Assembly: GCA_947470885.1 (NCBI GenBank)
Contig: CANIXE010000002.1
Span: 1 to 36,053, forward strand
Direction: 5' to 3'
Length of the DNA stretch: 36,053 bases
Source: Planctomycetota bacterium
GTDB lineage: Bacteria > Planctomycetota > UBA11346
This document shows, piece after piece, positions 1-36,053 of this stretch. The notes under the pieces are model-generated. The model saw only the letters and a program-made list of their open reading frames with translations. It was not told the DNA's origin and ran no database searches. Made by a program: the position numbers and the translations under genes. The stretch's first letter is position 1. Each line of letters begins with the position of its first letter.

Positions 1-126
1 CAGGCCCGGCCGGAATGGCGCCTGATTCCCGAAGCGATCACCGCCGGGACCATGGTCCCTGGGGCCGCCAGTACCATCGCACCCCCGGCCCGGGGACTGG
101 GCAGCAGCAAACGGGTGGGCCAATGA
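1..126 (+). CDS. C-terminal fragment of an unidentified gene running off the left edge (partial)
   Basis: Frame 1 is open from base 1 to the TGA at 124-126, with strongly G/C-biased third positions. Its stop overlaps the next ATG (123) as ATGA, the coupling pattern seen repeatedly in this window. No recognisable domain in the 41 residues. Confidence 0.35.
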   Translation, partial: QARPEWRLIPEAITAGTMVPGAASTIAPPARGLGSSKRVGQ

Positions 127-428
127 CCACACAGCAGATCATTGCCAGCCTATTCGTTGTCACCGGGGTGGGGATCCTGGGGATGGTGCTTTGGGGTGGA
201 TCCGACCTATCGGGGGTGACCAAGGCATCTGGGGCCGGCGCCCTTGGCGCCACCCTGCCCGGGAACGTCGCCACAGATCCCCTGGTTCCGGCCCTAGCGG
301 CCCAAGTCCCCGGGGATCCCTTCGTCCAGCGGATGGTGGGGCAACGCCGGGGAACCTCGATCCCCTTGCCGCCGCCGCCCCCGGTCTTGACCCCGGAACC
401 ACCCCTTCTGCCGCTGATCGGTCATTGA
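123..428 (+). CDS. Small membrane-anchored proline-rich hypothetical protein
   Basis: Internal ATG of track ORF 15..428. It starts MTTQQIIASLFVVTGVGILGMVLWGG (one clear TM helix), followed by a Pro-rich tail. GC3 is high and the start overlaps the upstream stop as ATGA. No family recognised. Confidence 0.5.
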   Translation: MTTQQIIASLFVVTGVGILGMVLWGGSDLSGVTKASGAGALGATLPGNVATDPLVPALAAQVPGDPFVQRMVGQRRGTSIPLPPPPPVLTPEPPLLPLIGH

Positions 429-433
429 GCCAT

Positions 434-630
434 GATCCTGGAAAACGCAATTGGAGCGCACCTGCTGCGTTGCTTCAAACCTCGCATGGCGCTGCCATGC
501 AGCGGCTTGAAGCGCCTTGCATCGGCGCACCACTTGCGTTTCCAGACGCACGTTTTGGATAAAATTTTATCGAGACAAAAGACTGAAAAACCAGCGGGGA
601 TCCTGGATATGACCAGCTCAACTGCGTTAT
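434..630 (-). repeat. Composite intergenic element, copy 1 (full length; orientation defined as AATAACGCAGTTGAG end -> hairpin)
   Basis: The reverse complement aligns end to end with 3773..3971. I count 6 mismatches over the ~118-nt hairpin-containing part by manual alignment. The hairpin is about 438..545. It starts 5 nt after the stop at 426-428, and the conserved end overlaps the ATG at 609. Confidence 0.85.
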
Positions 631-2786
631 TTGGGATGATCCATCGCACCCTGCCGCTGTCGGCGTTGGTTTTAGTCGTTGTCGGATCTGTCGCCGTGAT
701 GGGAGCCGAAGAAACAGCGGAACGGGTACCCCTGACGGCCACCAATTACGATGTCTTGTACCTCACCTCCGGAGGAACGTTGGAGGGGGCGGTGGTGGAA
801 CGCCTGGCCAATGGCGCGGTGCGTTTCGCCCGGATTGGCCGCCCGTCCACGGTGGTGGACAAGGACCTCATCGTCCGCATCACGCTGCACCGATCCCTGG
901 CTGAATCGGTCCGGGAACGGGGGAACCAGGCCTTGACCTCCGGGGATTGGTTGGATTTCCAGCGGACCCTGCGCTTTGTCCAGGAACAGTCCGCCAAGCC
1001 CGCCGTCCCGCCCCCGGCACAAGGCGGTGAATACGCCCCCAGCACGCCCCAGGAGATCCAGGCGGTGGGTCTGGAACTGGGCACCCAAGCCTTGACCCGG
1101 AAAGCGCCTGTGGAGGTGATCGCTCAGATCGCCCAGATGGCAGAGACCGCCGGTGATCGATCCACCGCCATCGTCGCCGCCAAAGCCGGCTTGGCGATGG
1201 ATCCCAATTGGACCGGCGGCTACGAAATCCAGGCCCGCCAGTTCACCGCGGCCAAGGATACGGCGGGGATGAAGGCCCTGGTCGCGGAGTGGTTGGTCCG
1301 ACAGCCAAGCGCGTTCCAGGCCAACCGCTTCCAGGCGAATTTGGCGGAACGTGGGGGGGACCTGCGTACCGCCGCGGACTGCTACCGCAAAGGTTGGGAA
1401 CTGCACCGGGATGGTGAATCCGCGGCGGGACTGCTTCGCTGCAGCCTGGTTCGGGGTGAATTCGACGATGTCGCCCGGATCGCCAAGGCCGTTGTCGAAG
1501 ATGGCAAATCCTCTCCAGCGGTTCTGGCGGCGGCCCAGGCCAGTCTGGGGATCGCCCTTTTGGCGCGCACTGGGGGAGCCCCCCGGGAGGCCGTCGAGGC
1601 CCTGGAAAAATCCTTGGCCAGCGGCCTTTTGCTGCCGGAACTGGCAGATCAGGTCCAATACGACCTGGGTCTGGCCCGCTGGCGCCTGGGGGATTCCAAG
1701 TCAGCCAAGGGCCATTGGCAGAAGGTCAGATCGCCCCTTGCCGCCGCCGCCCTTGCCTGGGCCGATCGGCAACCGGTGGATCCTGCGGGTCTGCCCGGGG
1801 AACTCGGTCCCTGGATCACCGAACACAATGCCGCCATCGATCTGGAACGGCAGAAACCCATCACTCCGCCGGCCATTCCCGGCCGGGCCGCCCGACAGTT
1901 GGAACTGGCGACCTATGCCCAGGTGCTGCGGACCGGTGGCAGTGACGAGGTGATCCGTGCCCTTGCCGCCCAACCCGGGATCGAGGCGTTGCGTTGGCGG
2001 ATCTACGGACTTCTTCTGGCTGGCCGGATCGCCGATCTGGATCCCCTCCTGGACCAGTTGGGCCAGGCGGATGGTTGGGGCTTGGCGGTGCGCGTCCATC
2101 TGGCGGCCGAGCGCCGGGATCAGATCCAGGCCAAGAAATGGTGGGGCAAGCTCAAGGACGCCCCGGGGGCGCCCAAGGATTATGTCGCTCGCCTGGCCCG
2201 GGAATTCGCCGCCGAGAACAACGATGAAATCCTTGAAAGTTTCGATTGGCCCGACGCCGATGCGGTGGGTTTGGGGTATCGTGTCAGTGCTGCCGGCACC
2301 GGCATCGCCTTCCAGGCCAAGGCCGGGAAACTGACCATCAGGGGAACCCAGAGCGCCGACGCCGGGCAGTTGAGCGTGGTCTGGCGACCTATCCCCGGGG
2401 ACAGGCTGATTTTCGCCCAGGTGGTGGTGGAGCGTTCCCAGGGAGCGGTGACCGGACTTGAGCTGGCGGATCCAGAACACAAAAACGCCATTCAGGTCGG
2501 GGTTAAGCCGGATGGCAACATCGTCTGGCGGATGATGACCGATGGTGTCCTGGGCCAGTGGACGATCCTGGGCCCTGGGCGGATCCCAAAAATCGAGATG
2601 GAACGGGGTCGATACGTCGTTGCTTCTGCAGACACGGCCCTGCGTCAGAGCGTGGTTGCGACCTTCGGAAGGGGACCGACGCTCCACATCGGCGTCTTCA
2701 CCAGCGCAGAACCGAAATCGGTGGTAGCGGCGGTGGCGGACGATTTTGTCATCGACCTGACCCGGGCCGGCAAGGGAGGACCATGA
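609..2786 (+). CDS. Secreted TPR-like helical-repeat protein with C-terminal beta-sandwich (ConA/LamG-like) region
   Basis: Track ORF 432..2786, trimmed because residues 1-59 are a translation of the repeat element. ATG 609 (MTSSTALFGMIHRTLPLSALVLVVVGSVAVMG) or ATG 636 (MIHRTLPLSAL...) gives a signal peptide. The body is long and Ala/Leu-rich helical, and the C-terminus is beta-rich. The stop overlaps the next gene as ATGA. Confidence 0.8.
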   Translation: MTSSTALFGMIHRTLPLSALVLVVVGSVAVMGAEETAERVPLTATNYDVLYLTSGGTLEGAVVERLANGAVRFARIGRPSTVVDKDLIVRITLHRSLAESVRERGNQALTSGDWLDFQRTLRFVQEQSAKPAVPPPAQGGEYAPSTPQEIQAVGLELGTQALTRKAPVEVIAQIAQMAETAGDRSTAIVAAKAGLAMDPNWTGGYEIQARQFTAAKDTAGMKALVAEWLVRQPSAFQANRFQANLAERGGDLRTAADCYRKGWELHRDGESAAGLLRCSLVRGEFDDVARIAKAVVEDGKSSPAVLAAAQASLGIALLARTGGAPREAVEALEKSLASGLLLPELADQVQYDLGLARWRLGDSKSAKGHWQKVRSPLAAAALAWADRQPVDPAGLPGELGPWITEHNAAIDLERQKPITPPAIPGRAARQLELATYAQVLRTGGSDEVIRALAAQPGIEALRWRIYGLLLAGRIADLDPLLDQLGQADGWGLAVRVHLAAERRDQIQAKKWWGKLKDAPGAPKDYVARLAREFAAENNDEILESFDWPDADAVGLGYRVSAAGTGIAFQAKAGKLTIRGTQSADAGQLSVVWRPIPGDRLIFAQVVVERSQGAVTGLELADPEHKNAIQVGVKPDGNIVWRMMTDGVLGQWTILGPGRIPKIEMERGRYVVASADTALRQSVVATFGRGPTLHIGVFTSAEPKSVVAAVADDFVIDLTRAGKGGP

Positions 2787-3544
2787 TCGCCTTCATCTCT
2801 GACATCCATGGCAACCTGCCGGCCCTGGAGGCGGTCTTCACCGACATCGCCAGCCTGGGCAATGTGGACAAGGTGATCTGCCTCGGAGATGTGGTCGGTT
2901 ACGGTCCCAATCCTGTGGAATGCTTCGAGTTGGTGGCCGAGCGCTGTAAGCTCATCCTGATGGGCAATCACGAACATGCCGTGCTCCATGGCGCCCTGGG
3001 GTTCCATGTCCCCGCCCGCCAAGCCATCGACTGGACCCGGAGCACGTTCCAGGCCATCGAGCCCCCAGCCCGGCGGAAGGCCCTGTGGCGCCTGCTGGAG
3101 GATCTGCCCGTCCGCCATGAATTCGGCGATGTCCTCCTGGTCCATGGCAGCCCTCGGGACCCGGTGATGGAATACGTCCTGGAAAGCGACCTGTGGGACG
3201 GCAACGATCCTGACAAGATGGACCAGATTTTCGCAGGTTTTTCCAAGCTCTGCTTTGTCGGCCACACCCACCGCCCCGGGGTGTTCACCACCGATCGCTG
3301 TTTCCTGCCGGCCCAGGAATTGATGGATGGCTTTGCGGTGAACGACCACCACAAATACTTGATCAACATCGGTTCCGTGGGGCAGCCCCGGGACCGGGAT
3401 CCCCGGGCCTGCTATGCCGTGTTTAGCGGCGACGCGGTTTATTGGCGGCGAGTCATCTACGATATCAACCGGGTGGCCGACCAAGTGCAGACCATCCCGG
3501 AACTGGACAACCGTTTCGCCAGCCGCTTGTACATGGGCGTCTGA
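2783..3544 (+). CDS. Metallophosphoesterase (calcineurin-like, YfcE/MPP family)
   Basis: MIAFISDIHGN...ICLGDVVGYGP...GNHE...LVHGSP...GHTH motifs are the canonical MPP metal-binding signature. The internal ATG at 2783 overlaps the upstream stop (ATGA). Confidence 0.88.
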   Translation: MIAFISDIHGNLPALEAVFTDIASLGNVDKVICLGDVVGYGPNPVECFELVAERCKLILMGNHEHAVLHGALGFHVPARQAIDWTRSTFQAIEPPARRKALWRLLEDLPVRHEFGDVLLVHGSPRDPVMEYVLESDLWDGNDPDKMDQIFAGFSKLCFVGHTHRPGVFTTDRCFLPAQELMDGFAVNDHHKYLINIGSVGQPRDRDPRACYAVFSGDAVYWRRVIYDINRVADQVQTIPELDNRFASRLYMGV

Positions 3545-3772
3545 GGCCAGCGGGGCGTGCGCCCCAGTGCGATCCCGGCTACGCCGCAGAGTTGCGCTGG
3601 GCGCCATCAAGCCCCGTCTCCGCGCTCGCGTAGGCGCCCTCGGGGGATGGTTGTTCGCGGGGCGCTGTTCGGTTACTTCCTGCCAGGGCCTCGCCGGCCC
3701 TGGACCCGCACGGTCGGTGGTTGTTCTTTGCGAATGCTGGACTCGTGAAGCATGTCTTGAGCGATCTGCTTA

Positions 3773-3971
3773 ATAACGCAGTTGAGTTGGCCTTTTGCAG
3801 AATCCCGGCTGTATTTTTCAACTTTTTTACCTCGACAGTTGTTCACCCAAAAGGTGCGTCTGGAAACGCGAGTGGTGCGCAGATGCAAGGCGCTTCAAGC
3901 CGCGGCATGGCAGCGGCATGCGCGGTTTGAAGCAACGCAGCAGGTGCGCTCCACTTGCGTTTTCCAGGATC
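3773..3971 (+). repeat. Composite intergenic element, copy 2 (full length)
   Basis: AATAACGCAGTTGAGTTGG end, an A/T-rich spacer (3811-3850), then a ~108-nt imperfect hairpin at 3860..3967 (CTGGAAACGCGAGTGGTGCGC...GCGCTCCACTTGCGTTTTCCAG). It lies between convergent genes, with the hairpin 23 nt from the pckG stop. Confidence 0.85.
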
Positions 3972-3994
3972 CAAGGTTCCTGTTGTCGCGACGG

Positions 3995-5794
3995 TCAGCC
4001 CAGGCGGGCCTTCAGCAATTCCCGCTCATAGATCAGCGGCTTGGGCATCCGGTCCCCGAGGTGCTGGAACAGTTCGCTTTGCAGTTCCAGTTCCCGGTCC
4101 CACTCCGCCTTGTCGATGGCTTGGATCTTGGCCAGGTTGGCGATGTCCGCCGGGGCCAGACCGTCGGTGCGCAGGGCGCCTTCGGCGGGCATCCAGCCCA
4201 ACGGGGTTTCCTCCCCCAGGCCGTGGCCGTGGGTGCGGGCGCAGATCCATTCCAGGACCCGCATGTTGTCGCCGAAGCCGGGCCACAGGAATTTGCCGTC
4301 GGTGCCCTTGCGGAACCAGTTCACGTGGAAGATCCGGGGCGGGTGGCTGAGCTTGCGGCCGATGTGCAGCCAGTGGTTCAAGTAGTCCCCCATGTGGTAG
4401 CCGCAGAACGGCAGCATGGCCATCGGGTCCCGGCGCACCTGGCCCAGGGTACCGGCGGCGGCGGCGGTGGTTTCGCTGCCCAGGGTCGCCCCCAGGTAGA
4501 CGCCATGGGTCCAGTTGAAGGCCTGGATCACTAGGGGGTAGGTGGTGGCCCGTCGGCCACCGAAGATGATCGCGCTGATGGGGACGCCGTTGGGATCATT
4601 AACCTCCGCCGCCAGGGCCGGGTTGTTGATCATCGGCGAGGCGAAGCGGCTGTTGGGATGCGCGCATTTTTCCGGGGATCCCGGCTTCCAGGGATTGCCC
4701 TTCCAGTCTTTCAGGTTTTCCGGGATCGGCCCGTCCAGGCCCTCCCACCACACCGCGCCGTCGGCACTCAGGCCGACGTTGGTGAAGATGGTGTCCCGGG
4801 CCAGGGTGGCCATGGCGTTGGGGTTGCTGGCATGGCTGGTCCCGGGGGCGACGCCGAAATAACCGTTCTCTGGATTGATCGCGTACAACCGGCCGTCGGC
4901 GCCGATGCGCATCCAGGCGATGTCGTCGCCGATGGTGGTGACCTTCCAGCCCTGGTAGGCCTTGGGCGGGATCAGCATCGCGAAATTGGTTTTGCCGCAG
5001 GCGCTGGGGAAGGCGGCGGCGACGAAGTTCACCTCGCCGGTGGGGGATTCCACTTTCAGAATCAGCATGTGTTCGGCCAGCCAGCCCTGGCGGTGGCCCA
5101 GCCAGGAACCGATGCGCAGGGCCAGGCATTTCTTCCCCAGCAGGACGTTGCCGCCGTAGTTGGAGCCGGTGCTGAGGATCAGGTTTTCCTGGGGGAAATG
5201 GGCGATCCACCGCCGTTCCAGGTCGCAGCCCAGGGTGGCGTGCAGCCCGCGGTTGAATTCCAGGGAGCTGCCCAACTGGTCCAGGGCCACCCGGCCCATC
5301 CGGGTCATCACCCGCATGGAGATCGCCACGTAGATGGAGTCCGTCAGCTCAATTCCCACCTTGGCCAGGCGGGATCCCGGCGGGCCCATCAGGTAGGGCA
5401 CGACGTACATCGTTTTGCCGGCGAAGGCGCCGGCGATGTAGCCCATTAGTCGCGTTTTCATCTCGGCGGGATCCGCCCAGTGGTTGGTCGGCCCCGCCTC
5501 GTCGGCGGTGGGGGTGCAGATCACCGTCCGCTCCTCGATCCGGGCGACGTCCGAGGGATGGGACCGGCTGTAGTACGAGCCGGGCCAGCGGCTCTGATCC
5601 AGGGGCTGGATCACTCCCTGGGCCTGGGCGAGCTGGAGCAGGGTGGCGTATTCCAGGTACGAACCGTCCAGCCAGCGGACCTCCGCCGGCTGGGCCAGGG
5701 CGGCGATTTCCCGCACCCAATTCAGCACCGCGAGGGGGCAGGCGTAGCCTTGGGGGGGCGTCGGGACGGCGATTGTGGGTTGGGCGGCGCTCAT
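3995..5794 (-). CDS. pckG: Phosphoenolpyruvate carboxykinase (GTP)
   Basis: Full-length match in character to GTP-PEPCK, including the kinase-1a motif AAFPSACGKTNFAML and GDDIAWMR. Start moved to the ATG at 5794 (MSAAQPT...), giving 599 aa. Confidence 0.95.
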   Translation of the reverse strand: MSAAQPTIAVPTPPQGYACPLAVLNWVREIAALAQPAEVRWLDGSYLEYATLLQLAQAQGVIQPLDQSRWPGSYYSRSHPSDVARIEERTVICTPTADEAGPTNHWADPAEMKTRLMGYIAGAFAGKTMYVVPYLMGPPGSRLAKVGIELTDSIYVAISMRVMTRMGRVALDQLGSSLEFNRGLHATLGCDLERRWIAHFPQENLILSTGSNYGGNVLLGKKCLALRIGSWLGHRQGWLAEHMLILKVESPTGEVNFVAAAFPSACGKTNFAMLIPPKAYQGWKVTTIGDDIAWMRIGADGRLYAINPENGYFGVAPGTSHASNPNAMATLARDTIFTNVGLSADGAVWWEGLDGPIPENLKDWKGNPWKPGSPEKCAHPNSRFASPMINNPALAAEVNDPNGVPISAIIFGGRRATTYPLVIQAFNWTHGVYLGATLGSETTAAAAGTLGQVRRDPMAMLPFCGYHMGDYLNHWLHIGRKLSHPPRIFHVNWFRKGTDGKFLWPGFGDNMRVLEWICARTHGHGLGEETPLGWMPAEGALRTDGLAPADIANLAKIQAIDKAEWDRELELQSELFQHLGDRMPKPLIYERELLKARLG

Positions 5795-9824: not shown

Positions 9825-9866
9825 CCAACGAAGAAACCCTGGGATTTCCCAGGGTTTCTTCGTTGG
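9825..9866. terminator. Perfect 19-bp stem / 4-nt loop hairpin between convergent genes (candidate bidirectional terminator)
   Basis: CCAACGAAGAAACCCTGGG-ATTT-CCCAGGGTTTCTTCGTTGG, 26 nt after the L,D-transpeptidase stop. No strong U-tract on either side, so function is inferred only. Confidence 0.55.
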
Positions 9867-9887: not shown

Positions 9888-10064
9888 CCTAAATGCCGCA
9901 TTGGATTTTTCACGCGGAGGCGCGGAGGCGCGGAGAACACCGTTCTTTCGCGCTTAACCAATGTCATCTACGGATCACCCTCCTGGTGAACGTCGATTTC
10001 TAGTCCAACCTCTTGCCTTCTCCGCATCTCCGCGTCTCCGCGTGAATTCATCGCCGGATTTAGG
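9888..10064. mobile_element. MITE-like non-autonomous element with ~45-bp imperfect terminal inverted repeats
   Basis: The left end CCTAAATGCCG...TTCACGCGGAGGCGCGGAGGCGCGGAGAA matches the reverse complement of the right end, CCTAAATCCGG...TTCACGCGGAGACGCGGAGATGCGGAGAA. It is flanked by the direct repeat CTTAT (9883-9887 and 10065-10069). The ~85-bp lower-GC core has no ORF. Confidence 0.6.
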
Positions 10065-12308: not shown

Positions 12309-15300
12309 GGCTTGGCTCCTTCAGTGGGCGCCGGGGCAGGCGTGGATGGTGCGGTTTCGCCGGGGGCTCTGGTGGCCTTCTTGCCCACCTCCACCAACAC
12401 CTGCAGTTCCACATCGTCCACATTGGTCACGGTCTGAAGTTCACAGGGGGGCGACTTGATCTCGGTGAAGACCAGGAGTGGTTGGCCATTGGCCTGGGCC
12501 AACTCATCGATCCGGAAGTTGGGCTTTACGGTGATGCCGGCGGCTTCATGGACCGCCAGGTACCGCTTGGCCAGTTCTCCGGCCAGGGCATTGCGGGCCC
12601 GGCGATAGCGCGGGTCGTCGCCTTTTTGCAGGGCATCGCCCCGGATGGCCGGAGCGATCAGGAACTGGCTTGGATCGCTGAAGTTATCCGCTTTATATTT
12701 CAGATCGGAGTTGACGTACGCGGCATCGCCCTTGGCCAGGGCCAGTTCGTAGACCTGGATGGTGGCCTGCCACTCAAGGTCGAGATCGTTGCCAGCCTCG
12801 TTGCGGGTGTTCTTGGCAATGACCAGAGCCTTGTCGATGTCCGCCTTGGCCGCTTTGCCTTCACGGACGTTGTCGAGGACGATCTCGACGTAGGCGCTGG
12901 AGAAGGTCCCGTTGTTCGGGTTGTAGGCGTACAGGACGTCGTACAGGGCCCGGGCTTTGTCCTTCTGGCCCAATTCGCGGTAGCCCGCCGCCAAATTGGT
13001 GCGCACGGTGAGATCCAGGAGGACACCGGATATCTGATTTTCCAGAGCCTTCATTGCCTTGTCCGCCTTGGTCCAGGCTTCGTTGCCCAAGGTGCTGCGC
13101 AATCCTTCAGCCTTGGTCCGGAACTCCTTCATTTTTTTCACGGCCTCGGCGTAGTTGATGCGCTTCTCGCCCCAATCTTCTTCCGGAGTTCCCTGGCGGA
13201 TCAGGTCGGCGAGGCCGGGCTTGTCCTCCAGGAGATCCCGGAGATTCGCCCAGGTAGTCTTGAGTTCCGGCCGGCTACCCACAGCAGTTTCCACCGCATT
13301 GAGCACGTCTCCCGGATTTTTCGTGAAAGCGAGCACCTCGCCGGACCGCTCAGAGAGGGTCTGGTACATTTCGTATAGGCGTACGGCCCGAGCATGTTCC
13401 CCGATGTTCCAGAGCGTTTGGGCGATGCTATAGATGTTCTTTTTCGGGTCCTTGTCGGTCAGGGTTGGTTCGATCAGGTCGGCCATGGCCCGCTTCGCGG
13501 TATTGATGATCCCGGGCCAAGCGGGGGAGGCATTCTTGGCTTGCTGGAAGGTGTCGCCGGCGGAGGAGACCCACTGGAACAAGGCCCCCAGGTACTTCCC
13601 GGCCTTGGTGGTCCGGGCCTGTTCGTCGGGATCCTTGATGCTGGGCAGGACCCGGCGGTAGGTTTCGTAGGCGGTTTCAAAGCTAGGCCACAGGGCGACC
13701 AGGGCTGCCGCATCGTTTTTGGCCGTGTCGTTCTTGATCCGGGCAAATTCCTGGCGTTGGATCGCCTGGCACATGGCCCGGAGCATCCGCGCCCGCAGGG
13801 CTTCGTCGGCGGGGGGTGCTTTCCAGTAGTCGGCATTGAGCTTGGCCTGGACGTCGGCGTAGCGTTCGTCCGCCAGCAATAGGCTGATCCGGCTGGATTC
13901 CGCCGTGGATTGGGCCCGGCGCAGGTCTCGTTTCTTCTCGTCGGTCAGCCCGGGCTTGGCCAGTTCGGCATCGACCCGGATGGTGATCGCTTCGGCGGCT
14001 TTGACCATTTCCTCGGAGAGCCGTTTCATGCTATCCTTGTCACCCCGTTCCTTGAACTGGTCGTATTTCTTCATCCGGGCCCCCGAGGCCAGGCTGAAGA
14101 TTTTGATCCAGGAGTCGGGGTATTTCTTCTCGTAGGCATTCATCGACTCGAAGGCACCGTCCAAATCCCCGGTGTCCAAACGGACGAGGATCTGGTTCAG
14201 CTCCAGGTCTTCGCCGGCGCTTTCCGGGGCGACCTTGCGGACCAGTTCGATGGTGGTGTCGTAGAGCCCTTGGGCACCTTTGGTCCGCGTCTGGAGTCCG
14301 CTCACCAAATTGACGGTGTTCTTGGCCAGGCGCTGCACGCCCTTGCCGGCGGTGTTCCAACTCGTGCCGGTGCGCCAGGGATTGACCTTGGGATCCACCG
14401 CCAGGCGGGAAGCGATCTGGGACATGCCTTCATTGGCCACCAGGGCGGCGTGGAAGCGCAGGTCCATTTTGCTGAGGGTCACCGCGTAGGTATTGTAGAG
14501 ATCGGGGGCGATTTCGACGAACTGTTCCGGGGTGACGGATTCCAGGCCGAGAATCCCGGAACGGAGCATGGTGGCGGCGAGGATGGTCTGGCTTCTCCGT
14601 AATTTTTCGTTGGCCGTGTTGTCCGCCTCCTTCAGCAGGGAGCGGGCTATGCCCAGGGCCTGGGTGGGATCCTGGGGTTTCACCGGTTCGCCCCAGCCGC
14701 CGCCACTGAGGCCGCTGGTGGAACCGGCCAGCCAGGGCTGGGCACTTTCGGCGACGGGATTGCGTTTCGCGCTGGCTACTGCCCCGAACAAGGTGGTGGC
14801 GGCTCCGCTATCACCCTTGGCCTGGAGGACCCGGGCGGCCATGATGTAAATTTTACCCAGGGCGGAGGCCCGGTTGTAGCTGGGGCTATCCAGACGCAGA
14901 TCGCCGCTGCGGTTGCGCTCCTTGAAGGTTTCCCAGTACTTGGCTGCCGTCGCCAGATCGCCTGGGGTGCCGAGCTCATAGCGGTAGCGCAGCAGGGCGT
15001 TCCAGGTGTCGATCTGGATATCGATCACCGCTTCCCGGGAGGCCGAGGGGAAGTGCCGGGAGTCCAGGTCGACGATCTTTTGCATCTCGCCCTCGATTTC
15101 CTCGGGCTTGATGCCCTTGGTCTTCTGGCGGGCGCTTTCGAGGAGGAGCGTGTTGATCTCCAGCTTCAACAGGGGGTGGTAATCACCAAAGTTGTAGTCC
15201 CAGTCGGCGAGGATCTTGGCGTTGGCTTCCAGCCATTTCCCCAGGAATGCCGACGAAGCGTCGGAATCCAGGTTGAATTCTTTACCCCGGGTGAGGACTT

Positions 15301-15973: not shown

Positions 15974-16102
15974 GACGGCTACCGTTCCCCGCATGCTAGC
16001 AGGGTCAAGGCGGGCGGGGCCGGCTTTTTCGGGCGTGTCAGACGGCGTTGTGAAGGGTTTCCTCCCCATAGCGCCGTTAAGGAAGCCACTCAGCTGCGCT
16101 TT

Positions 16103-16173
16103 TTCCCACAGGATGGGTCTTCCCACAGGATGCGTCTGGAAACGGGAGTGGCGCGCGCCAATCGCGTTTCCAG
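16103..16173 (+). repeat. Composite intergenic element, copy 3 (truncated: short hairpin plus duplicated spacer remnant)
   Basis: TGCGTCTGGAAACGGGAGTGGCGCGCGCCAATCGCGTTTCCAG keeps both outer hairpin arms but lacks ~70 internal nt. It is preceded by a 17-bp tandem duplication, TTCCCACAGGATG(G/C)GTC (16103-16119 and 16120-16136). The hairpin ends 1 nt from the flhG stop. Confidence 0.65.
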
Positions 16174-16174
16174 C

Positions 16175-16966
16175 CTACCAGGGTTCGCCCCGCAGGCGGA
16201 CCGCCAAATTGCGGATCGCCGCGGCGGCCGGGCCCAGGGTCGCCCCTGCCGCCAAGGGCTTGCGTCGGCGTACTGAATCCGCCAGGGCCGGATCCCGGGG
16301 GATCCACCCCGCCAGGGGCAGTTCCCGCTTCAAGTGGGTGCGGGCGACGGTCTGCAGGCGGGTGGCCACCTGGCGGGCTTCGTGTTCGCCATCCGCGAGG
16401 TTGATCACCAGGCGCAGATCGCCACCGGGGTGCTGCTGCTCCATCACCTTGATCAGGGCGTAGGCGTCGGTCATCGAGGTGGGATCCGGGGTCACCACCA
16501 CCAGGGTGACCCGGACGGCCTTGAGGATGCCCAGGACCTCCCGCCCGATGCCGGCGGCGGTGTCGATCACCAGGGGGGTACCCGGGCGGGCCAGGCCCGC
16601 CAGCAGGCTGATCATCCGTTCCATCCGCTCTGGGGACAGTCGGGTCAGTTCGTCGACACCGCTGGCGGCGGGGACCAGACTGACGCCGAAGGGGCTGTGG
16701 AGGAGGACTTCGCTGATGGAACAAGTTCCGGCGAGGACATCCGCCAAGGTCCGTTCCGGGGCCAATCCAAGAAGCATGTCGGCATTCGCCATCCCCAGGT
16801 CGCCATCCACCAGGACCGTGGGCTGGCCGAGTTTGGCCAGGGCCACCGCCAGGTTGACCGCCAGGCAGGTTTTGCCGACCCCACCCTTGCCCCCGGTGAC
16901 GGCGATGGCGGAAAGACGGGCAGGCCCGCCCACGGCGGTGCGCAATTTGGCGGCCTGGTCAGTCAT
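16175..16966 (-). CDS. flhG: Flagellar number regulator FlhG (MinD/ParA-type ATPase)
   Basis: N-terminal DQAAKLR activator motif, deviant Walker A (VTGGKGGVGKT), MinD-like fold, and position directly after flhF. Confidence 0.9.
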   Translation of the reverse strand: MTDQAAKLRTAVGGPARLSAIAVTGGKGGVGKTCLAVNLAVALAKLGQPTVLVDGDLGMANADMLLGLAPERTLADVLAGTCSISEVLLHSPFGVSLVPAASGVDELTRLSPERMERMISLLAGLARPGTPLVIDTAAGIGREVLGILKAVRVTLVVVTPDPTSMTDAYALIKVMEQQHPGGDLRLVINLADGEHEARQVATRLQTVARTHLKRELPLAGWIPRDPALADSVRRRKPLAAGATLGPAAAAIRNLAVRLRGEPW

Positions 16967-17023: not shown

Positions 17024-18220
17024 TCACACGGCCACCGCGGCCCGTTCGAACAGCCGGCCGGCGAACAGATCCGGAGAAGCCGGGACGATGTCGTCCGGGA
17101 CCTCCTGGCCGGTGGTGGCCAGGCGCACCGGCAGGCGATGACGGCGCAGACAGCCATAGAGGCGGCCCGGGGCGGCGCATTCGTCCAGCTTGGTGATCCC
17201 CACGTGCTCCAGGGGCAGGATGCTGAAGCGTTCCACCACGGCGGCGAATTCCGCTCGACCGCTGGTGGCGGCGGCGCAGAGCATGACCTGCAGCCCGGGG
17301 ACGCAGCGGGCGAAGCCGGTGAGTTCGTGGACCCGGGCGGTATCTGCGGGGCTGCGCCCGGCGGTGTCCACCAGGACGTGGTCCTTGTCAGAGAAACGTT
17401 CCACCAGGCGGGCCAGCTGGGCCGGGGTGGTGGCGACTTCCAGGGGGACGCCCAGGAGATCGGCGTAGGCCTGGAGCTGATCGGTGGCCCCGACCCGGTA
17501 GGTGTCGATGGTCAGCAGGGCGACGCTGCGCTTTTTCTTCAGCACCAGGTCGCCAGCGATCTTGGCGATGGTGGTGGTCTTGCCCACCCCGGTGGCCCCC
17601 ACCACCAGCAGGCGGCGGCAGTGGTCCCAGTCGATGGGCGCGACCTGGGCCAGGCTGCGGGCCAGGAAACGGCGGCAGAATTCCTCTTTGCGGCTGGGTT
17701 CCAGGCGACCGGCAACTTTGCCCAGGGCGTCGTCCAGCTCCGCCAGGTGTTCGGCGGGCAGTTCGGATTCCTCCAGGGCCATGGCCAGAGATTCCCCCAG
17801 GTGGGTGTTGGCCACCGCCCGGCCCTGGCTGAGCCGGGCGAGCTGGCGGCGGATCGCTCCCAATTCATCCTCCAGGCCGTTGGCCGGGGCTGGCGTGGCC
17901 GGTGCAGGAGCCGGAGTGCCCGCCCAGGCCCGCAAGCCAGCCGCCTGATCGGTGAAATCCGCCGGGGCCCAGGGCCGGACGCCATCGGCTTCGTCGTGGG
18001 TGGAATCCCGGGAAAAAGTTGGGGTGGGTTTGGCCGGGGTGGCAATCGGCCCGAGATCGTCTTCGGCGGCGGCGACCACTTCATAGCCCACGGTCGAGCC
18101 CAATAACCCGGGGGATTTCACGGTCTTCGTCTCGATGATCAGGGCCGCAGATCCCAAATCGGTGCGGACCTTGGTCAGGGCTTCAGCGACCGTGCGGCCA
18201 GTGTAGCGTTTGACGATCAT
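17024..18220 (-). CDS. flhF: Flagellar biosynthesis GTPase FlhF (SRP-type)
   Basis: MIVKRYTGRTVAEALTKVRTDLG N-terminus and NG domain with GATGVGKTTTIAK, DTYRVGA and DTAGR motifs. Located between flhA and flhG. Confidence 0.9.
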   Translation of the reverse strand: MIVKRYTGRTVAEALTKVRTDLGSAALIIETKTVKSPGLLGSTVGYEVVAAAEDDLGPIATPAKPTPTFSRDSTHDEADGVRPWAPADFTDQAAGLRAWAGTPAPAPATPAPANGLEDELGAIRRQLARLSQGRAVANTHLGESLAMALEESELPAEHLAELDDALGKVAGRLEPSRKEEFCRRFLARSLAQVAPIDWDHCRRLLVVGATGVGKTTTIAKIAGDLVLKKKRSVALLTIDTYRVGATDQLQAYADLLGVPLEVATTPAQLARLVERFSDKDHVLVDTAGRSPADTARVHELTGFARCVPGLQVMLCAAATSGRAEFAAVVERFSILPLEHVGITKLDECAAPGRLYGCLRRHRLPVRLATTGQEVPDDIVPASPDLFAGRLFERAAVAV

Positions 18221-18275
18221 GGCTGGACTTCCGAAGTGATCGCGGGCAAGGCAGGAGCATCGGTGCGGGCGTGGA

Positions 18276-18335
18276 CCACAAGGCCTCCTGTCTGGTTCTG
18301 AGACACCCCGTTGCAGGCTGCGACGGGGCAGGGTT
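18276..18335 (-). promoter_or_regulatory. Leader motif copy A (hairpin + SD + GTG) upstream of flhF
   Basis: On the minus strand: CCCCGTCGCAGCCTGCAACGGGG hairpin, then GACAGGAGGCCTTGTGG. About 75% identical over ~60 nt to 20647..20707. Confidence 0.4.
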
Positions 18336-18478
18336 CTGAGGAACTAATATGGCGTTGGGCGTGCCAATGTTGGGTGGTCATGTCGCAGTGGCGATGCTCC
18401 ACTCCGGGAGCGCCGGCCTCCAGGCCGGCTCGAAAACCTCCAGCAACGAATAACGTTGATTCCACCGCTAAAATCAAG

Positions 18479-18508
18479 CCGAGCGCCGAGCTGGTGCTCG
18501 GCGCTCGG
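18479..18508 (-). terminator. Candidate intrinsic terminator after flhA
   Basis: 12-bp perfect stem CCGAGCGCCGAG / CTCGGCGCTCGG with a 6-nt loop. On the minus strand it is followed by CTTGATTTTAG, and it sits 61 nt downstream of the flhA stop. Confidence 0.5.
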
Positions 18509-18568
18509 ACAGAACATTTTTCGCTGCGGTGAAATTTCGCCGCTATATTTCAGGTATCGCCGTCAACC

Positions 18569-20677
18569 TCAACGGTTCAAGGCAATCGTCCCGACGACAT
18601 CGACTTGTACTTGGGGCCCCAACTCGGTGTAACTGATCACCGGCAAGTCGGGGAAAAACCGGGCGGTGATTTGGCGCAGGCTGCGGCGGATCGCTCCGGT
18701 GGTCAACAGCACCGGTTCGTGGCCCTGGGCGTTGGCGTCCGCCAGGGTCTTGCCCAACTGATCGACGAGGCTGCTGGCTTCCGCCGGAGCGATGGCCAGG
18801 CCGCCGCCATGGTTGGCCTGCTGCATGGCCTGGGACAGTCGGGCCTCGGTCTGGGGTTCCAGGATCACCGCCATCAGCCGGCCTTCCGGGGTCAGGTGGG
18901 GGGCGACCACCGCCCGGCCGATCCGGGCCCGGGCCTGTTCTGCCAGCAACGCCGGGTCCGCCGCCGGGGCGTCGGCGATGGCTTCCAGGATCTTCTCCAG
19001 GTTGGTGACCGCAACTTTTTCGTCCAACAGGTGGCCCAGGACCTTCTGCACGGCCCCCAGTTTCGCGTTGGTTTCGATGTCCTTGACCAGCACCGGGGCG
19101 TCTTTCTTGAGGGCGTTGAGCATGGTCTGCACGTCCTCGCGGTTGAGGATCTGGCTGGCGTTGGCCTTGAGGAGTTGGGTCAGGTGGGTGATGAACACCG
19201 ACGCGGGGTCGGTGACGGTGTAGCCCAGGCCCTCGGCTTCGCTGCGCTTGCCGGTTTCGATCCACACCGCGTCGAGGCCGAAGGCGGGTTCCTTGGTGGC
19301 CAGGCCCTGGACGGCCCCGGCGACGGCCCCGCCGTCGATGGCCAGCAGGCGATCCGCGTAGAGTTCGCCGGTGGCCAGGACCTGCCCTCCTGCCAGCAGG
19401 CGGTAGGTGTTGGGGGAGAGCTGGATGTTGTCCTTGATTCGGATCGGCGGGACGAGCAGACCGCTGTCCCGGGCGATTTGCTTGCGCAGGGCGGTGATCC
19501 GGTCCAACAGGGTGCCGCCCCGGTCCTTGTCCACGAGGGGGATGAGGCGGTAGCCGACTTCCACCCCCAGGCGGTCGCCCCCCAGGAGGTCCTCCGGTTT
19601 CTCCTCGGGTTTGGGCTCGGACGCTTTGGCGGCGGAGACCTTGGCCTCGGCGACCTCTTTTTCCACGCCGTCCATGGTCCGGGAAATGATGAACAGGATG
19701 CTGGCCAACAAGAAAAACGGGATGAAGGGCATCCCCGGGATCAGGCCCAGGAAGCCGGTCATGGCTGCGGCCACGGCGATGGCCCGGGGTTTGATGAACA
19801 ACTCTTTGGTCAGCTCGCTGCCCAGGGTCTGATCGCTCCGGGCCTTGGTCACCAGCAGGCCGCTGCCGATGGTGATCAGCAGGGACGGGATCTGGCTGAC
19901 CAGGCCGTCGCCCACGGTCAGCAGGGTGAACCGGCTGAGGGCCTGGCCGGCGGACATGTTGAGCATGGTCATGCCGATGATGAAGCCGGCGATGATGTTG
20001 ACGATGGTGATGATCAGACCGGCGATGGCGTCGCCTTTGACGAACTTGCCGGCACCGTCCATCGCCCCGTAGAATTCCGCTTCCTGGGCGATTTTTTCCC
20101 GGCGTTCCCGGGCGTCCTTTTCGCTGATCAGGCCGGCGTTCAGATCGGCGTCGATGGCCATCTGCTTGCCGGGCATGGCATCGAGGACGAACCGGGCGGC
20201 GACTTCGCTGATGCGCCCGGCACCTTTGGTAATGACCACCAACTGGATGATCAGGAGAATAATGAAGACCACTACGCCGACCACGAAGTTGCCGCCGACC
20301 ACGAAGCTGCCGAAGGTTTCGATCACCGCGCCGCCGGAGCCAGTGAGAAGGATCAACCGGGTGGAGGCCACGTTCAGGCCGAGCCGGAGCATGGTGGTGA
20401 TTAGGAGTAGGCTAGGGAAGGCGCTGAATTCCAGGGGATGCTTGGCGTAAATGCAGACCAGGAGCACGACCATGCTGACAGTCAGGTTCACCGCGATCAG
20501 GAACGACAGCAAACTAGAAGGCACGGGCAGGATCAGCACCGCGAGGATGCCGATGACGCCTAAGCTAAAGATCAGGTCGGTGCGCTTGGCCAGGGCATCC
20601 AGACGGGTGCCGAAGGGGGTCGCAGGTGCGGCGGCGGAGGCAACGGCCACGGGGGCTCCTGTCGGATCCTGCGACAC
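18569..20677 (-). CDS. flhA: Flagellar type III export apparatus protein FlhA
   Basis: Canonical FlhA membrane domain (FPSLLLITTMLRLGLNVASTRLIL, FVKGDAIAG) and cytoplasmic domain. The track start at 20677 is a GTG. A GTG at 20650, preceded by AGGAG, is an equally good start. Confidence 0.95.
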   Translation of the reverse strand: MSQDPTGAPVAVASAAAPATPFGTRLDALAKRTDLIFSLGVIGILAVLILPVPSSLLSFLIAVNLTVSMVVLLVCIYAKHPLEFSAFPSLLLITTMLRLGLNVASTRLILLTGSGGAVIETFGSFVVGGNFVVGVVVFIILLIIQLVVITKGAGRISEVAARFVLDAMPGKQMAIDADLNAGLISEKDARERREKIAQEAEFYGAMDGAGKFVKGDAIAGLIITIVNIIAGFIIGMTMLNMSAGQALSRFTLLTVGDGLVSQIPSLLITIGSGLLVTKARSDQTLGSELTKELFIKPRAIAVAAAMTGFLGLIPGMPFIPFFLLASILFIISRTMDGVEKEVAEAKVSAAKASEPKPEEKPEDLLGGDRLGVEVGYRLIPLVDKDRGGTLLDRITALRKQIARDSGLLVPPIRIKDNIQLSPNTYRLLAGGQVLATGELYADRLLAIDGGAVAGAVQGLATKEPAFGLDAVWIETGKRSEAEGLGYTVTDPASVFITHLTQLLKANASQILNREDVQTMLNALKKDAPVLVKDIETNAKLGAVQKVLGHLLDEKVAVTNLEKILEAIADAPAADPALLAEQARARIGRAVVAPHLTPEGRLMAVILEPQTEARLSQAMQQANHGGGLAIAPAEASSLVDQLGKTLADANAQGHEPVLLTTGAIRRSLRQITARFFPDLPVISYTELGPQVQVDVVGTIALNR

Positions 20678-32594: not shown

Positions 32595-33853
32595 AGATCG
32601 TCCTCTGCAATCAGGCGCATGCCGGAAATGAACGCCGTGATTTCGGCGTCGCGATTGTAGAACAGCACCTGGAGTTCCTTGACGTCATCCAGATTTTCCA
32701 CCGACCCGTTGTAGGCCCAGTTGCTGGCGCTGCTCTTGAAATTCTTGGCCGACAGGTTGAAGCGAAGTTCCTTGAAGCCTTCGCCGAATTTCACCGTTTG
32801 GGCTTCGCTTTCGAAGTAGGCATAGTCGCCAGTCTTGATCCCCACCGCGACCCGGATGGGGATCTCGGCGGAATTCTTCAGGCGGAAGATCAGGATGTGC
32901 TTCTCGACAGCGCTGAGGGCGACCGGCTTCCGCAGGGTCGCCTTGTCCTTGCCGCCTGCCCCGCAGGTGATCTCCAAGGTCCGCTTGGCACTGTTGCTGT
33001 CGTTATCGCTGTCCTTAGCGGACAGGGGCACCAGCTTGCTGCTGATGGGGTTGGACCACTGCTCGTTCTCAGCTTGCCAGCTCTTGGTTTCCAGACCCTC
33101 GGTGAGGCGTTCCCGGGTGGATGTCTCGGGTTCCTTGCTTACGGACTTCGTCTTGGGCGTGGGGCTGGGGGGCAGGGGCACCGCCGGGGCGCGGGTATCC
33201 GGCGCGGTGCCGGCGATGGCCTCCCAGACGCCCAGCTGGCGCAGGGTCTCGGCATCCGTGCCGCCCATCTGGCGGTACCAGCGGAACAATGGCAGGGCCG
33301 CCTCCGAACCCCGTTCCTCGGCCACCAGGCGGAGGTAAATTACCGCGATCCCCAGGTCCTTCAGCAGGCTGGGATCGGCGCGGACCAGGAGCATCGCCTT
33401 GTCGAGGGCGGCCAGGGCCTCGGCAGGATGCTTCTCCCCCAGGCACCAGCGGGCCAGGTCCACCAGACCTTGGAAATCGGTGTCCTTCACGGCGGAAACC
33501 CGGCCAGATAGGCCCATCACCGTGGATTTCACCCGCTCCTTGCGTAGGCGCAGGGTGCCGGTGGCGGTACGAATCAGGAGGTGTTTTTCTGAGGTTGGGT
33601 CGTCTTCGAGGCGGCCGGCAATGGTCTGCTGGTTGTCGAGGATTACCAGATCCCGGTCCGCTTCCTTTTCCGGAGGGGCCTTGTCGGTGGCCGGCTTTTC
33701 CTTCGCAGGTTTTTCCTTGGCCGGCTTTTCCGCGGCGGGTTTTTCCTTGGCCGGCTTTTCCGCGGCGGTCACGCCGGGTGCGTAGGCCACCCAGGCAGCA
33801 AGAACCAGGCCGAGTCCGGGCAGACGGGGCAACAGGGATCGGGGACGACACAT
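32591..33853 (-). CDS. Secreted protein with (KEKPA)n repeat, helical middle and C-terminal carbohydrate-binding-like beta-sandwich
   Basis: ATG at 33853 gives MCRPRSLLPRLPGLGLVLAAWVAYAPGVTAAEKPAKEKPAAEKPAKEKPAKEKPATDK. The C-terminal 130 aa are beta-rich (ILIFRLKNSAEIPIRVAVGIKTGDYAYFES...). Confidence 0.7.
   Translation of the reverse strand: MCRPRSLLPRLPGLGLVLAAWVAYAPGVTAAEKPAKEKPAAEKPAKEKPAKEKPATDKAPPEKEADRDLVILDNQQTIAGRLEDDPTSEKHLLIRTATGTLRLRKERVKSTVMGLSGRVSAVKDTDFQGLVDLARWCLGEKHPAEALAALDKAMLLVRADPSLLKDLGIAVIYLRLVAEERGSEAALPLFRWYRQMGGTDAETLRQLGVWEAIAGTAPDTRAPAVPLPPSPTPKTKSVSKEPETSTRERLTEGLETKSWQAENEQWSNPISSKLVPLSAKDSDNDSNSAKRTLEITCGAGGKDKATLRKPVALSAVEKHILIFRLKNSAEIPIRVAVGIKTGDYAYFESEAQTVKFGEGFKELRFNLSAKNFKSSASNWAYNGSVENLDDVKELQVLFYNRDAEITAFISGMRLIAEDDL
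33689..33769. repeat. In-frame tandem repeat encoding the EKPAK/KEKPA repeats
   Basis: 15-nt periodicity. Two adjacent 30-nt units (33710-33739 and 33740-33769) differ at one position. Confidence 0.8.
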
Positions 33854-34863: not shown

Positions 34864-35685
34864 TCAGGCGGGACGCACGGCCAAGCTGGGTTCGATCTGG
34901 GATTTCAGCAATTGCTCCATCCGACCGAGCAAATCCCGCTGGGCATCCCCATCGAGTCCGGTGACGGTGAGCACCACCTGGTTTCCATCGAGATCCTGTA
35001 ATTCCACCTCGGCTCCTGCCGGCAGCCCTGGGCGGATCTGGGTGTCCACCAGGGCCATGATTTTGTGCATGGTGGGGATCCGGCCCTGGCCGGCTTTGCG
35101 TACGGGGGCTGCGGTGGGTGCCTTGGCGAGGTCCAGGGCCTCGGCAATGATCCGGGGGATGTCCACCCGGCAGGAGCCGCAGGCACTTCCCGCCCCGGTG
35201 GCATTGACGATGTCGTCCACCTCCTTGAGGTTCATCACCTTTACAGCGGTGCGGATGGTCTCTTCCGGGATCCCGTGGCAGCGGCAGACCAGGGGTTCGC
35301 CTTCGGTATCGCACTCCGGTTCCTCGCCCCGGTAGACGCAAACGGCGGATTTCAGGCCCTCCAGGGCCCACAAGCTGGCGGGCAGCCGCTCCCCCGTCAG
35401 TCCCCCCAGGTGGGCGCACAGGTCCGCCGGGCCGAGGGCCAGGCATTCATCCAGGGTTTTGCCCACCGCCAGTTCGGTGGTGGCGGAACCGGTGGCCAAC
35501 TGGTCCTGGGCATTGAAGACCTGGAACTTGGCGGCGGTGATCCGTTCATCCTTGACCTGGATATAGAAGCGCAGGGCATCCCCGACAACGATCGATCCGA
35601 TGTCGCCCACAGCATTGGCATTCAGGAGCTTGCCGATGTTGCGGGGCTTGGCGCGGTGGTCATCGAGGAGTTCAACGGGGGTCAT
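34864..35685 (-). CDS. NifU-like three-domain protein (IscU-like N-domain, BFD-like [2Fe-2S] middle domain, Nfu-like C-domain)
   Basis: Domain order and spacing match NifU. The middle domain has CRC...CGSC. Start at ATG 35685 (MTPVELLDDH); the track start at 35718 is a TTG. Confidence 0.8.
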   Translation of the reverse strand: MTPVELLDDHRAKPRNIGKLLNANAVGDIGSIVVGDALRFYIQVKDERITAAKFQVFNAQDQLATGSATTELAVGKTLDECLALGPADLCAHLGGLTGERLPASLWALEGLKSAVCVYRGEEPECDTEGEPLVCRCHGIPEETIRTAVKVMNLKEVDDIVNATGAGSACGSCRVDIPRIIAEALDLAKAPTAAPVRKAGQGRIPTMHKIMALVDTQIRPGLPAGAEVELQDLDGNQVVLTVTGLDGDAQRDLLGRMEQLLKSQIEPSLAVRPA

Positions 35686-35754
35686 GCCCGGAGGTTCCGG
35701 CCGGGTTTCCCGGCGCAAGGTGCCGGATCAGACCCTTGAGGTTTGTGCCCTCAT

Positions 35755-35933
35755 GTCGCAGTTAAGTGGTATACAGATGGTCTGAGAGCCTTTTTCGGTG
35801 GAAAATTCACCCCGAAAATGCGGTTCGAAACGCGAGTGGTGCGCAGCTGCAAGGCGCGCCAAATTGCTGCACGGCGGCGACACGGGAGGATTGAAGCAAC
35901 GCCGCAGGTGTGCTCAATTCGCGTTTTTCAGCT
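35755..35933 (+). repeat. Composite intergenic element, copy 4 (divergent centre)
   Basis: GTCGCAGTTAAGTGG end, an A/T-rich spacer, and a hairpin at ~35826..35929 whose outer arms match copies 1 and 2 (GAAACGCGAGTGGTGCGCAGCTGCAAGGCGC...TTGAAGCAACGCCGCAGGTG). The central ~33 nt differ. The hairpin abuts the stop at 35934-35936. Confidence 0.75.
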
Positions 35934-36053
35934 TCAGACGTCCGCGTCGGCGGCGTCGCTCCGGTACTTGATGAAGACGATATGGTCCATCTCACTGCCC
36001 GGTTCATTCTCGTCGTTCACATAGTCCCGCTCGATGGCCCGCAGTTCCACATG
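35934..36053 (-). CDS. C-terminal fragment of an unidentified gene running off the right edge (partial)
   Basis: The minus-strand frame is open from the window edge: ...HVELRAIERDYVNDENEPGSEMDHIVFIKYRSDAADADV, then TGA (35934-35936). It is not in the ORF track because there is no start codon in the window. GC3 is high. Confidence 0.45.
   Translation of the reverse strand, partial: HVELRAIERDYVNDENEPGSEMDHIVFIKYRSDAADADV

Follow-up and report, generated by a model that had tools for sequence, protein, structure and literature searches.

Locus and architecture of the repeat unit

The stretch of DNA analysed here, termed the window, comprises positions 1 to 36,053 of contig CANIXE010000002.1 (GenBank assembly GCA_947470885.1) from a Planctomycetota bacterium, and it carries four copies, c1 to c4, of a repeated non-coding unit with a long imperfect palindrome at one end. 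The unit is described in the orientation of copy c2 on the plus strand, termed elem+, which is the strand antisense to the flanking genes. In this direction the layout is asymmetric, with an end motif of ~19 nucleotides (nt), termed LE, leading into a ~70-nt AT-rich linker and then into the 108-nt imperfect palindrome. The copies and their parts are as follows.

434..631, minus strand: c1, full length; palindrome 438-545; read on the plus strand, GATC 434-437, the conserved ACGCA 546-550, linker 551-612 (41% GC) and LE CCAGCTCAACTGCGTTATT 613-631
3772..3971, plus strand: c2, full length; LE AATAACGCAGTTGAGTTGG 3772-3790, linker 3791-3845, pre-stem stretch CCCAAAAGGTGCGT 3846-3859 (CGTC inside), palindrome 3860-3967 and a GGATC tail up to 3971
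16064..16175, plus strand: c3, internally deleted derivative; LE-like motif ATAGCGCCGTTAAGGAAGCC 16068-16087, a shortened linker and hairpin 16136-16173
35753..35933, plus strand: c4, diverged full copy; LE ATGTCGCAGTTAAGTGG 35753-35769 and palindrome 35824-35931

Read in elem+, LE is AATAACGCAGTTGAGYTGG in c1 and c2, ATGWCGCAGTTAAGTGG in c4 and ATAGCGCCGTTAAGGAAGCC in c3. The linker has a GC content of 41-45% compared with 65% in the window, in agreement with the A/T-rich spacer described in the first-pass annotation, and is separated from the palindrome by the short conserved stretch CCCAAAAGGTGCGT. The palindrome starts with CTGGAAACGCGAGTGGTGCGC and ends with GCGCTCCACTTGCGTTTTCCAG, and it is composed of two arms of 21-25 nt, conserved in 4/4 copies, around a centre that is less conserved in sequence and fixed in length. 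Copies c1 and c2 are 86-87% identical (87% complementary across 157 nt), and c4 is 75-80% identical to c1 and c2 (c1 and c4 are 76% complementary across 135 nt). An 18-nt arm motif has six matches in the window where 0.02 are expected, and a profile hidden Markov model (HMM) and a covariance model, the latter run with filters off, each find exactly four loci in the ~49 kb of genome retrieved. The four copies of one ~200-nt element reported in the first-pass annotation are confirmed as real, as a single repeated non-coding unit far above chance.

The largest structural departure is seen in c3, which had been given as 16103-16173 and in fact extends over 16064-16175, retaining the LE-like motif and a shortened linker and aligning to profile HMM positions 7 to 116. 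Its hairpin is 38 nt long and consists of the two arms only, the centre being gone. Directly 5' of the hairpin lies a 17-nt tandem duplication (16105-16138, CCCACAGGATGGGTCTT / CCCACAGGATGCGTCTG), which copies the pre-stem segment including the CGTC-like tag. A GGTGCGC direct repeat is present in the arms on either side of the centre, and slippage between the two repeats may give rise to a deletion of the centre of the c3 type. Copy c4 has a 16-nt deletion in the linker and exists as two strain alleles that differ at 17 sites. The earlier description of c4 as having kept its arms and replaced its centre holds for the arms, but the centre has diverged through substitution, with its length unchanged and no insertions or deletions compared with c2.

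Gene context and polarity

The genes adjoining the copies, with functions assigned using Pfam, are arranged as follows.

123..428, plus strand: 101-aa gene, stop 426-428, 9 nt ahead of the c1 palindrome
609..2786, plus strand: gene 3' of c1, secreted-looking, 716/725 aa, start ATG 609 or ATG 636
2783-3544, plus strand: metallophosphatase, the convergent gene beyond c2
3995..5794, minus strand: GTP-dependent phosphoenolpyruvate carboxykinase (PEPCK), stop 3995-3997, 27 nt from the c2 palindrome
16175..16966, minus strand: FlhG-like (MinD/ParA-type) ATPase of a flagellar cluster, stop 16175-16177, 1 nt from the c3 hairpin
35934..36053, minus strand: 80-aa gene with its 3' end in the window and complete in locus L123, stop 35934-35936, 2 nt from the c4 palindrome

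All four stops are true gene ends, being supported by independent gene calls made on same-species contigs of four to five public assemblies. The palindrome forms the stop-proximal end in 4/4 copies, as had been proposed, although the gaps between stop and stem, at 9, 27, 1 and 2 nt for c1 to c4, differ from the 0-23 nt given earlier. The far end had been placed at or just before the next start in c1 and c4. This is correct for c1, where ATG 609 falls inside the copy and ATG 636 lies 5 nt beyond it and gives a signal-peptide-like N terminus, but not for c4, where the next gene on the same strand, NifU-like with its start at 35685, is 70 nt from the far end. Beyond c3 the next same-strand gene starts at 15973, ~95 nt from the far end of the copy, and the far end (LE) of c2 faces the 3' end of the convergent metallophosphatase gene 227 nt away. 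Three copies are thus located between co-directional genes and one (c2) between convergent genes, with none between divergent genes.

A model that places units uniformly and in random orientation within these intergenic regions gives the arrangement seen a joint probability of ~1.2e-5, a value that is post hoc and model-dependent. Orientation alone is weak evidence (p = 0.125) because only three gene pairs are informative. The single polarity noted earlier for 4/4 copies nevertheless follows the flanking genes and not replication: the GC skew is positive across the whole window and c1 is inverted together with its genes, and therefore orientation tracks the local gene strand and not the replichore. 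The same observation argues against a replication-strand-locked orientation of the IS200/IS605 kind, which is tied to the lagging strand.

The open reading frame (ORF) 3' of c1 remains open through the entire repeat back to ATG 432 (432-2786), and public gene calls (loci L127, L132 and L135-L137) start inside c1, giving products of 784 aa, or of 455-461 aa on short contigs. These calls probably contain a mis-annotated N-terminal extension, and the true start is likely 636, with the signal-peptide-like N terminus, or 609. The 227-nt GC-rich region between the metallophosphatase stop and the LE of c2 (3545-3771) has no called gene, Rfam match or repeat similarity, and an overlapping 119-aa ORF (3414-3773) is called on no same-species contig. 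A cassette consisting of a gene plus the repeat appears unlikely, the small proteins encoded upstream of c1 and c4 having no evident similarity in translations read by eye and not aligned.

Folding and covariation of the palindrome

The palindromes fold with energies of -70.8 (c2), -61.7 (c1), -45.0 (c4) and -23.8 kcal/mol (c3), and the whole c2 unit has a folding z-score of -4.6. The hairpin is strong on both strands, and its stem, which begins with CTGG, extends over at least 17 bp in c3 and ~40 bp in the full copies. An RNAalifold consensus of four distinct sequences (c1, c2 and the two c4 alleles) contains 39 pairs for elem+, with 96% of the pair-by-sequence cells paired. Four stem pairs are changed on both sides, including two stepwise series of A-U, G-U and G-C at alignment columns 29/115 and 38/106. 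The series at columns 29/115 is the A-T, G-T and G-C succession described correctly in the first-pass annotation, and that at columns 38/106 is seen only with the L123 strain allele included. The two-sided changes fit selection for pairing, as suggested earlier, and give it weak support, as 15 of 500 column shuffles of the four sequences reach the observed covariation score; DNA-level processes in palindromes could yield the same pattern.

Promoter, terminator, RNA-family and coding signals

No sigma-70-like promoter is found in any copy on either strand, taking at least 9/12 hexamer positions and a spacing of 16-18 nt, in a phylum whose promoter rules are poorly known. The -35-like and -10-like hexamers from which an outward promoter had been proposed are weak, do not keep their register from c1 to c2, and are diverged or deleted, hence unconserved, in c3 and c4; in c2 the putative promoter would point into the 3' end of the convergent gene. 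A consensus scan for canonical intrinsic terminators flags the main hairpin of no copy, and the proposed terminator hairpin is not supported, the main stem having no T-run tail behind it. In the sense direction a T4 run occurs 8-9 nt downstream, and the three to five T's at the stem base, four to five on the antisense (elem+) strand compared with three on the other, are themselves paired. The only flag within the copies is a minor alternative hairpin of 6 bp in c1 (535-550, sense direction), which is followed by CGTTTTGG.

Rfam searches of the whole window at gathering scores, and of 3545-3995 (the region of c2) at E<=10, both yield 0 matches, in line with the earlier statement that the element belongs to no named RNA family. 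A riboswitch or leader for the downstream genes is rejected, as these genes are unrelated in function and there is none downstream of c2. Six-frame translation of the concatenated element yields no match among 5.8 billion proteins, and a coding peptide is ruled out by substitutions that have no codon periodicity. The consensus for integration host factor (IHF), WATCAANNNNTTR, has two matches in the window with one mismatch allowed, neither of them inside a copy, and an IHF-containing bacterial interspersed mosaic element (BIME) is rejected. An integron attC site, which would have RYYYAAC and GTTRRRY core sites where the hairpin begins and would belong to a cassette array beside intI, was also considered and rejected: the GTTRRRY-like string sits in LE, at a distance of ~90 nt from the hairpin base, there is no inverse core site at the stop-proximal end, and the neighbours are housekeeping and flagellar genes spaced kilobases apart.

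Strain variation and distribution

Comparison of the window with the same-species contig L123 shows 28 differences over 11,187 nt, 17 of which are inside the 179-nt c4, a 95-fold excess (P ~5e-24) between strains that are 99.75% identical in the flanks. The c4 allele of L123 has better-matched arms and carries bases present in none of c1 to c3, and therefore points to unseen donor copies. The allelic difference is most simply read as ectopic gene conversion, with donor copies located at other places in the genome. The allele of the window recurs in another sample (L125). Copies c1 and c2 are identical across the strains in the European Nucleotide Archive (ENA) apart from single changes, and L133 has a C-to-T change at the first stem base of c1. 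The sequence breaks off 34-36 nt inside the c1 palindrome in two independent Logan assemblies (L133 9612-9649 and L134 2512-2547), which suggests the behavior expected of a genomic repeat that breaks de Bruijn graph assemblies. Taken with the allele exchange at c4, these breaks imply that the genome contains more copies.

No further copies come to light when the locus is extended 9.9 kb leftward and 2.9 kb rightward. The host is uncultured, and the names of the records suggest that it comes from lake metagenomes; its genome is contained in the ENA samples ERZ28612967, ERZ27280173 and ERZ27263797 and in runs SRR8942312 and SRR6754088. The nearest homologues of the host PEPCK are 71% identical, the few that have a source name being labelled Planctomycetota or Verrucomicrobiota. 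The element is absent from 21 kb of one distant relative (the PEPCK-homologue locus, which has no synteny) and from a second distant locus in an unrelated organism of 53% GC. This second locus is the best match to the truncated substrate-binding protein at the right contig end, for which no same-species protein was found. A 26-nt pattern gives five matches in JGI metagenome contigs, all within coding sequence and with no second arm, and these are attributed to chance; viral contigs and plasmids contain no match to the element. A scan of reference genomes with an 18-nt degenerate arm pattern gives >112 single matches in unrelated taxa, for which BLAST extension reaches at most ~20-30 nt, and these are rejected as chance hits of a pattern that is too short.

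Other features in the window

A different element of 174 nt, MITE-like (miniature inverted-repeat transposable element), is located at 9888-10061. Its terminal inverted repeats read CCTAAATGCCGC... and ...GCCGGATTTAGG, inverted arms of 29 nt lie further inside (9909-9937, 10018-10046), and the target duplication is CTTAT (5 bp). The element occurs once in the DNA examined and is precisely absent from a sister strain (contig L115), where the empty site reads GGACTTAT joined to TCTGGGGG. This second element is thus polymorphic in the same genome, which indicates that small mobile elements are active here now or have been recently.

Two regions outside the copies contain hairpins with T-rich tails. 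One, at 9825-9866, is a stem-loop of 19 perfectly matched bp (CCAACGAAGAAACCCTGGG-AAAT-...) whose tail is T-rich. It lies between a convergent YkuD-domain gene and a 388-aa gene, has the look of a genuine bidirectional terminator and is not related to the repeat family. In the unusually long 349-nt gap at 18220-18569, between the genes for an FHIPEP-domain (FlhA-like) protein and an SRP54-type GTPase (FlhF-like), there are two hairpins, one GC-rich, 13 bp long and followed by a T-rich tail (18479-18508, minus strand), and another small one at 18526-18543. The former would place a terminator inside the flagellar gene string.

A minus-strand ORF contains repeats with a 15-nt period at 33665-33761 (CTTTTCC...GGCCGGCTTTTCC), probably a low-complexity repeat segment. 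Positions 1-123 of contig L126 match 12924-13046 of the window at 95% identity in the same orientation and ~340 nt off the collinear position, a displacement due either to a contig-end assembly artefact or to an internal repeat in the 1222-aa gene.

Comparison with known repeat families

Repeats related to repetitive extragenic palindromes (REPs), including the REP doublets forming hairpins (REPINs) of Pseudomonas and Escherichia coli, are well studied in Proteobacteria and barely in the Planctomycetes-Verrucomicrobia-Chlamydiae (PVC) group, to which the present host belongs. In the BIMEs of E. coli (RIB/RIP) the layout is REP, IHF site, REP. A REPIN system has tens to hundreds of copies in a genome, a conserved 5' GTAG on each REP, and a gene for a cognate REP-associated tyrosine transposase (RAYT, IS200-like) with the same REPs on its flanks. 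REPINs are composed of conserved inverted REPs separated by a spacer conserved in length, and they form a hairpin in single-stranded nucleic acid and show compensatory changes (PMC3116915). REP families are placed downstream of ORFs, between unidirectional or convergent genes (PMC3733652). The present unit shares with the REPIN/REP/BIME group the two conserved inverted arms around a less conserved spacer of fixed length, the hairpin of ~100 nt, the compensatory changes in the stem, the extragenic position downstream of ORFs, the decay to remnants and the exchange between copies. It differs in that the arms are not small palindromes themselves, and the additional one-sided linker and LE make the unit asymmetric. 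The sequence is unrelated, and the host is a PVC-group bacterium and not a proteobacterium.

A further point of comparison is the tag adjacent to the stem. An unpaired GCGTC stands directly 5' of the left arm in c1 to c3, and GCGGT or GCGGC is found in its place in c4, a pattern that chance may produce with so few copies. The described CGTC REP families have an unpaired CGTC (or TGTC/CCTC) at one end of a stem of 8-9 bp starting with A-T pairs, a loop of 4-5 nt and a CCA tail (PMC3733652), and the repeats which that study lists for the PVC group include none with CGTC (Di Nocera et al. 2013, PMC3733652). Common to these families and the present element are the location at gene ends and the lack of a known dedicated transposase, and the unpaired (G)CGTC found 5' of the stem on one strand in c1 to c3 resembles their tag, whereas the stem of the present element starts with CTGG, no CCA tail is present, and c4 is without the tag.

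The earlier proposal of an interspersed palindromic repeat resembling ERIC (enterobacterial repetitive intergenic consensus) or Correia elements is upheld as to the kind of element. Correia elements of Neisseria and ERIC, or intergenic repeat units (IRU), of Enterobacteria are likewise intergenic sequences of 100-200 bp that form long hairpins, and they are co-transcribed with neighboring genes, with orientation-dependent effects on the mRNA possible. The 26-bp terminal inverted repeats, TA target duplication, IHF site and end promoters of Correia elements are not found in the present copies, there is no sequence similarity to either family, and the palindrome fills only one half of the unit. 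With bacterial MITEs the element has in common that it is short, non-coding, repeated and AT-richer than the genome.

Interpretation

The family is probably a lineage-specific, non-autonomous interspersed repeat of the REP/REPIN/BIME or MITE kind. It is previously undescribed, with no such family on record in Rfam or in the literature searched, and it is neither a promoter cassette nor a known RNA family. Transposition or recombination may have spread the copies, with the enzyme responsible encoded at some other place in the genome; the copies would exchange sequence through ectopic gene conversion, and they decay through internal deletion, for which c3 provides an example. With less confidence than is attached to the classification, the copies are taken to be transcribed with the upstream gene because they lie 1-27 nt behind the stops and mostly between co-directional genes; the hairpin would then become a 3' untranslated region (3'UTR) or intercistronic structure. 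In E. coli, REP structures can block 3'-5' exonucleases, attenuate read-through and disturb termination if placed within the ribosome footprint of the stop. By analogy, the hairpin might act here as an exonuclease barrier, an attenuator or a ribosome-proximal obstacle. The stop adjacency and fixed polarity most likely reflect either which insertions are tolerated or which targets the mobilising enzyme prefers, and the data fit both. Tolerated insertions would be, for example, those that leave the downstream gene joined to its own upstream signals and keep the better-terminating strand out of the sense direction.

Several observations weigh against this classification or the role in the sense transcript attached to it. 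Only four copies are known, within the ~49 kb examined, and no transposase, RAYT or other, is encoded in that DNA. No empty site is found for any copy, all same-species contigs that reach a site (3-4 close strains) carrying it. No target-site duplication is apparent, the junctions of c1 to c4 sharing no direct repeat, and the inverted repeat formed by LE and the reverse complement of the distal arm is at best marginal in c1 and c2 and absent in c4 (AACGCAGTTGAG against AACGCAAGTGGAG; shuffle p of 0.08 in c2, 0.035 in c1 and 0.66 in c4). In contrast to REPINs, the repeat has no GTAG beside either arm (GCGTC stands before the left arm, and GATC, GAAG or TAGG before the right), and the stem, at >=17-40 bp, is much longer than in the CGTC-tagged REPs. 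Finally, elem+ folds better than the opposite strand in every copy, by 1.7-11 kcal/mol, with a consensus fold of -51.4 compared with -30.8 kcal/mol. Wobble pairs in the arms, which amount to ~6 independent events against 1 (one-sided p ~0.06), mildly favor the same, antisense strand; the one event of opposite sense occurs in strain L133. A folding advantage of the antisense strand is not predicted by a model in which the hairpin serves purely in a sense 3'UTR.

This strand asymmetry speaks for a small structured RNA family, or a terminator of antisense transcription, read from LE through the linker into the hairpin, so that the hairpin and 4-5 U's form the 3' end. All 8/8 wobble cells in the arms are G-U on elem+, with no A-C cells, and the T-run at the stem base is longer on that strand. 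The G-U versus A-C asymmetry is, however, not significant in the arms and is lost once the whole palindrome is aligned symmetrically, the U's take part in stem pairing, elem+ has neither a recognisable promoter nor an Rfam relative, and c3 is without most of the RNA body, all of which makes this reading improbable. The weaker strand, with A-C mismatches and three T's, always faces sense transcription, and this would also be accommodated by a bidirectional insulator or terminator retained by the host, whose copies persist by stopping convergent or antisense read-through at gene ends, and whose polarity arises as copies that terminate strongly in the sense direction are not tolerated where neighbouring genes are co-transcribed. 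Copy c2 is placed exactly between convergent genes, and the stem has a flanking A-run and T-run, a feature of bidirectional terminators. Such a function is nonetheless unlikely given that the genuine terminator-like hairpins of the window, with their T-rich tails (9825-9866 and 18479-18508), are unlike the copies and do not belong to a repeat, that the conserved LE and linker are left unexplained, and that the sample is of four copies.

The order of stop, hairpin, AT-rich DNA and next gene in c1, c3 and c4 would suit a module for gene ends, with a hairpin that terminates the upstream transcript or protects it and with a linker and LE from which an outward promoter drives the downstream gene. 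Such activities occur together in Correia elements, and the small alternative hairpin of c1 with its following CGTTTTGG reads in the sense direction. This arrangement is unlikely in view of the negative promoter scan, the weak and shifting hexamers, the aim of a c2 promoter into a convergent gene and the main stem without a T-run; c3, moreover, lies within a run of flagellar genes that a terminator would disrupt. The juxtaposition of palindrome and AT-rich linker, which resembles the REP, IHF site, REP layout of BIMEs, might by analogy mark a genome-architecture site bound by a nucleoid protein or gyrase, a reading that is highly unlikely with no IHF consensus in any copy when one mismatch is allowed.

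It is conceivable, though distinctly unlikely, that the repeat is put at gene ends by a mechanism that reads polarity and serves there as lineage-specific gene-end punctuation with the better-folding strand antisense. Possible routes might be insertion coupled to the termination of transcription or translation, or targeting of the first nucleotides after a stop. If this were true, the mode of targeting and the organisation would be ones not described for REP-like or MITE-like elements.

The interspersed repeat has practical effects in this organism in the form of mis-annotated N termini, as in the 784-aa call, broken metagenome assemblies and a hotspot of strain variation. If the stop adjacency, which is 1-2 nt in two of the copies, and the polarity hold genome-wide, the family would provide a test of target choice versus selection, and of whether hairpins abutting stop codons tune operon expression in a phylum with poorly known transcription signals.

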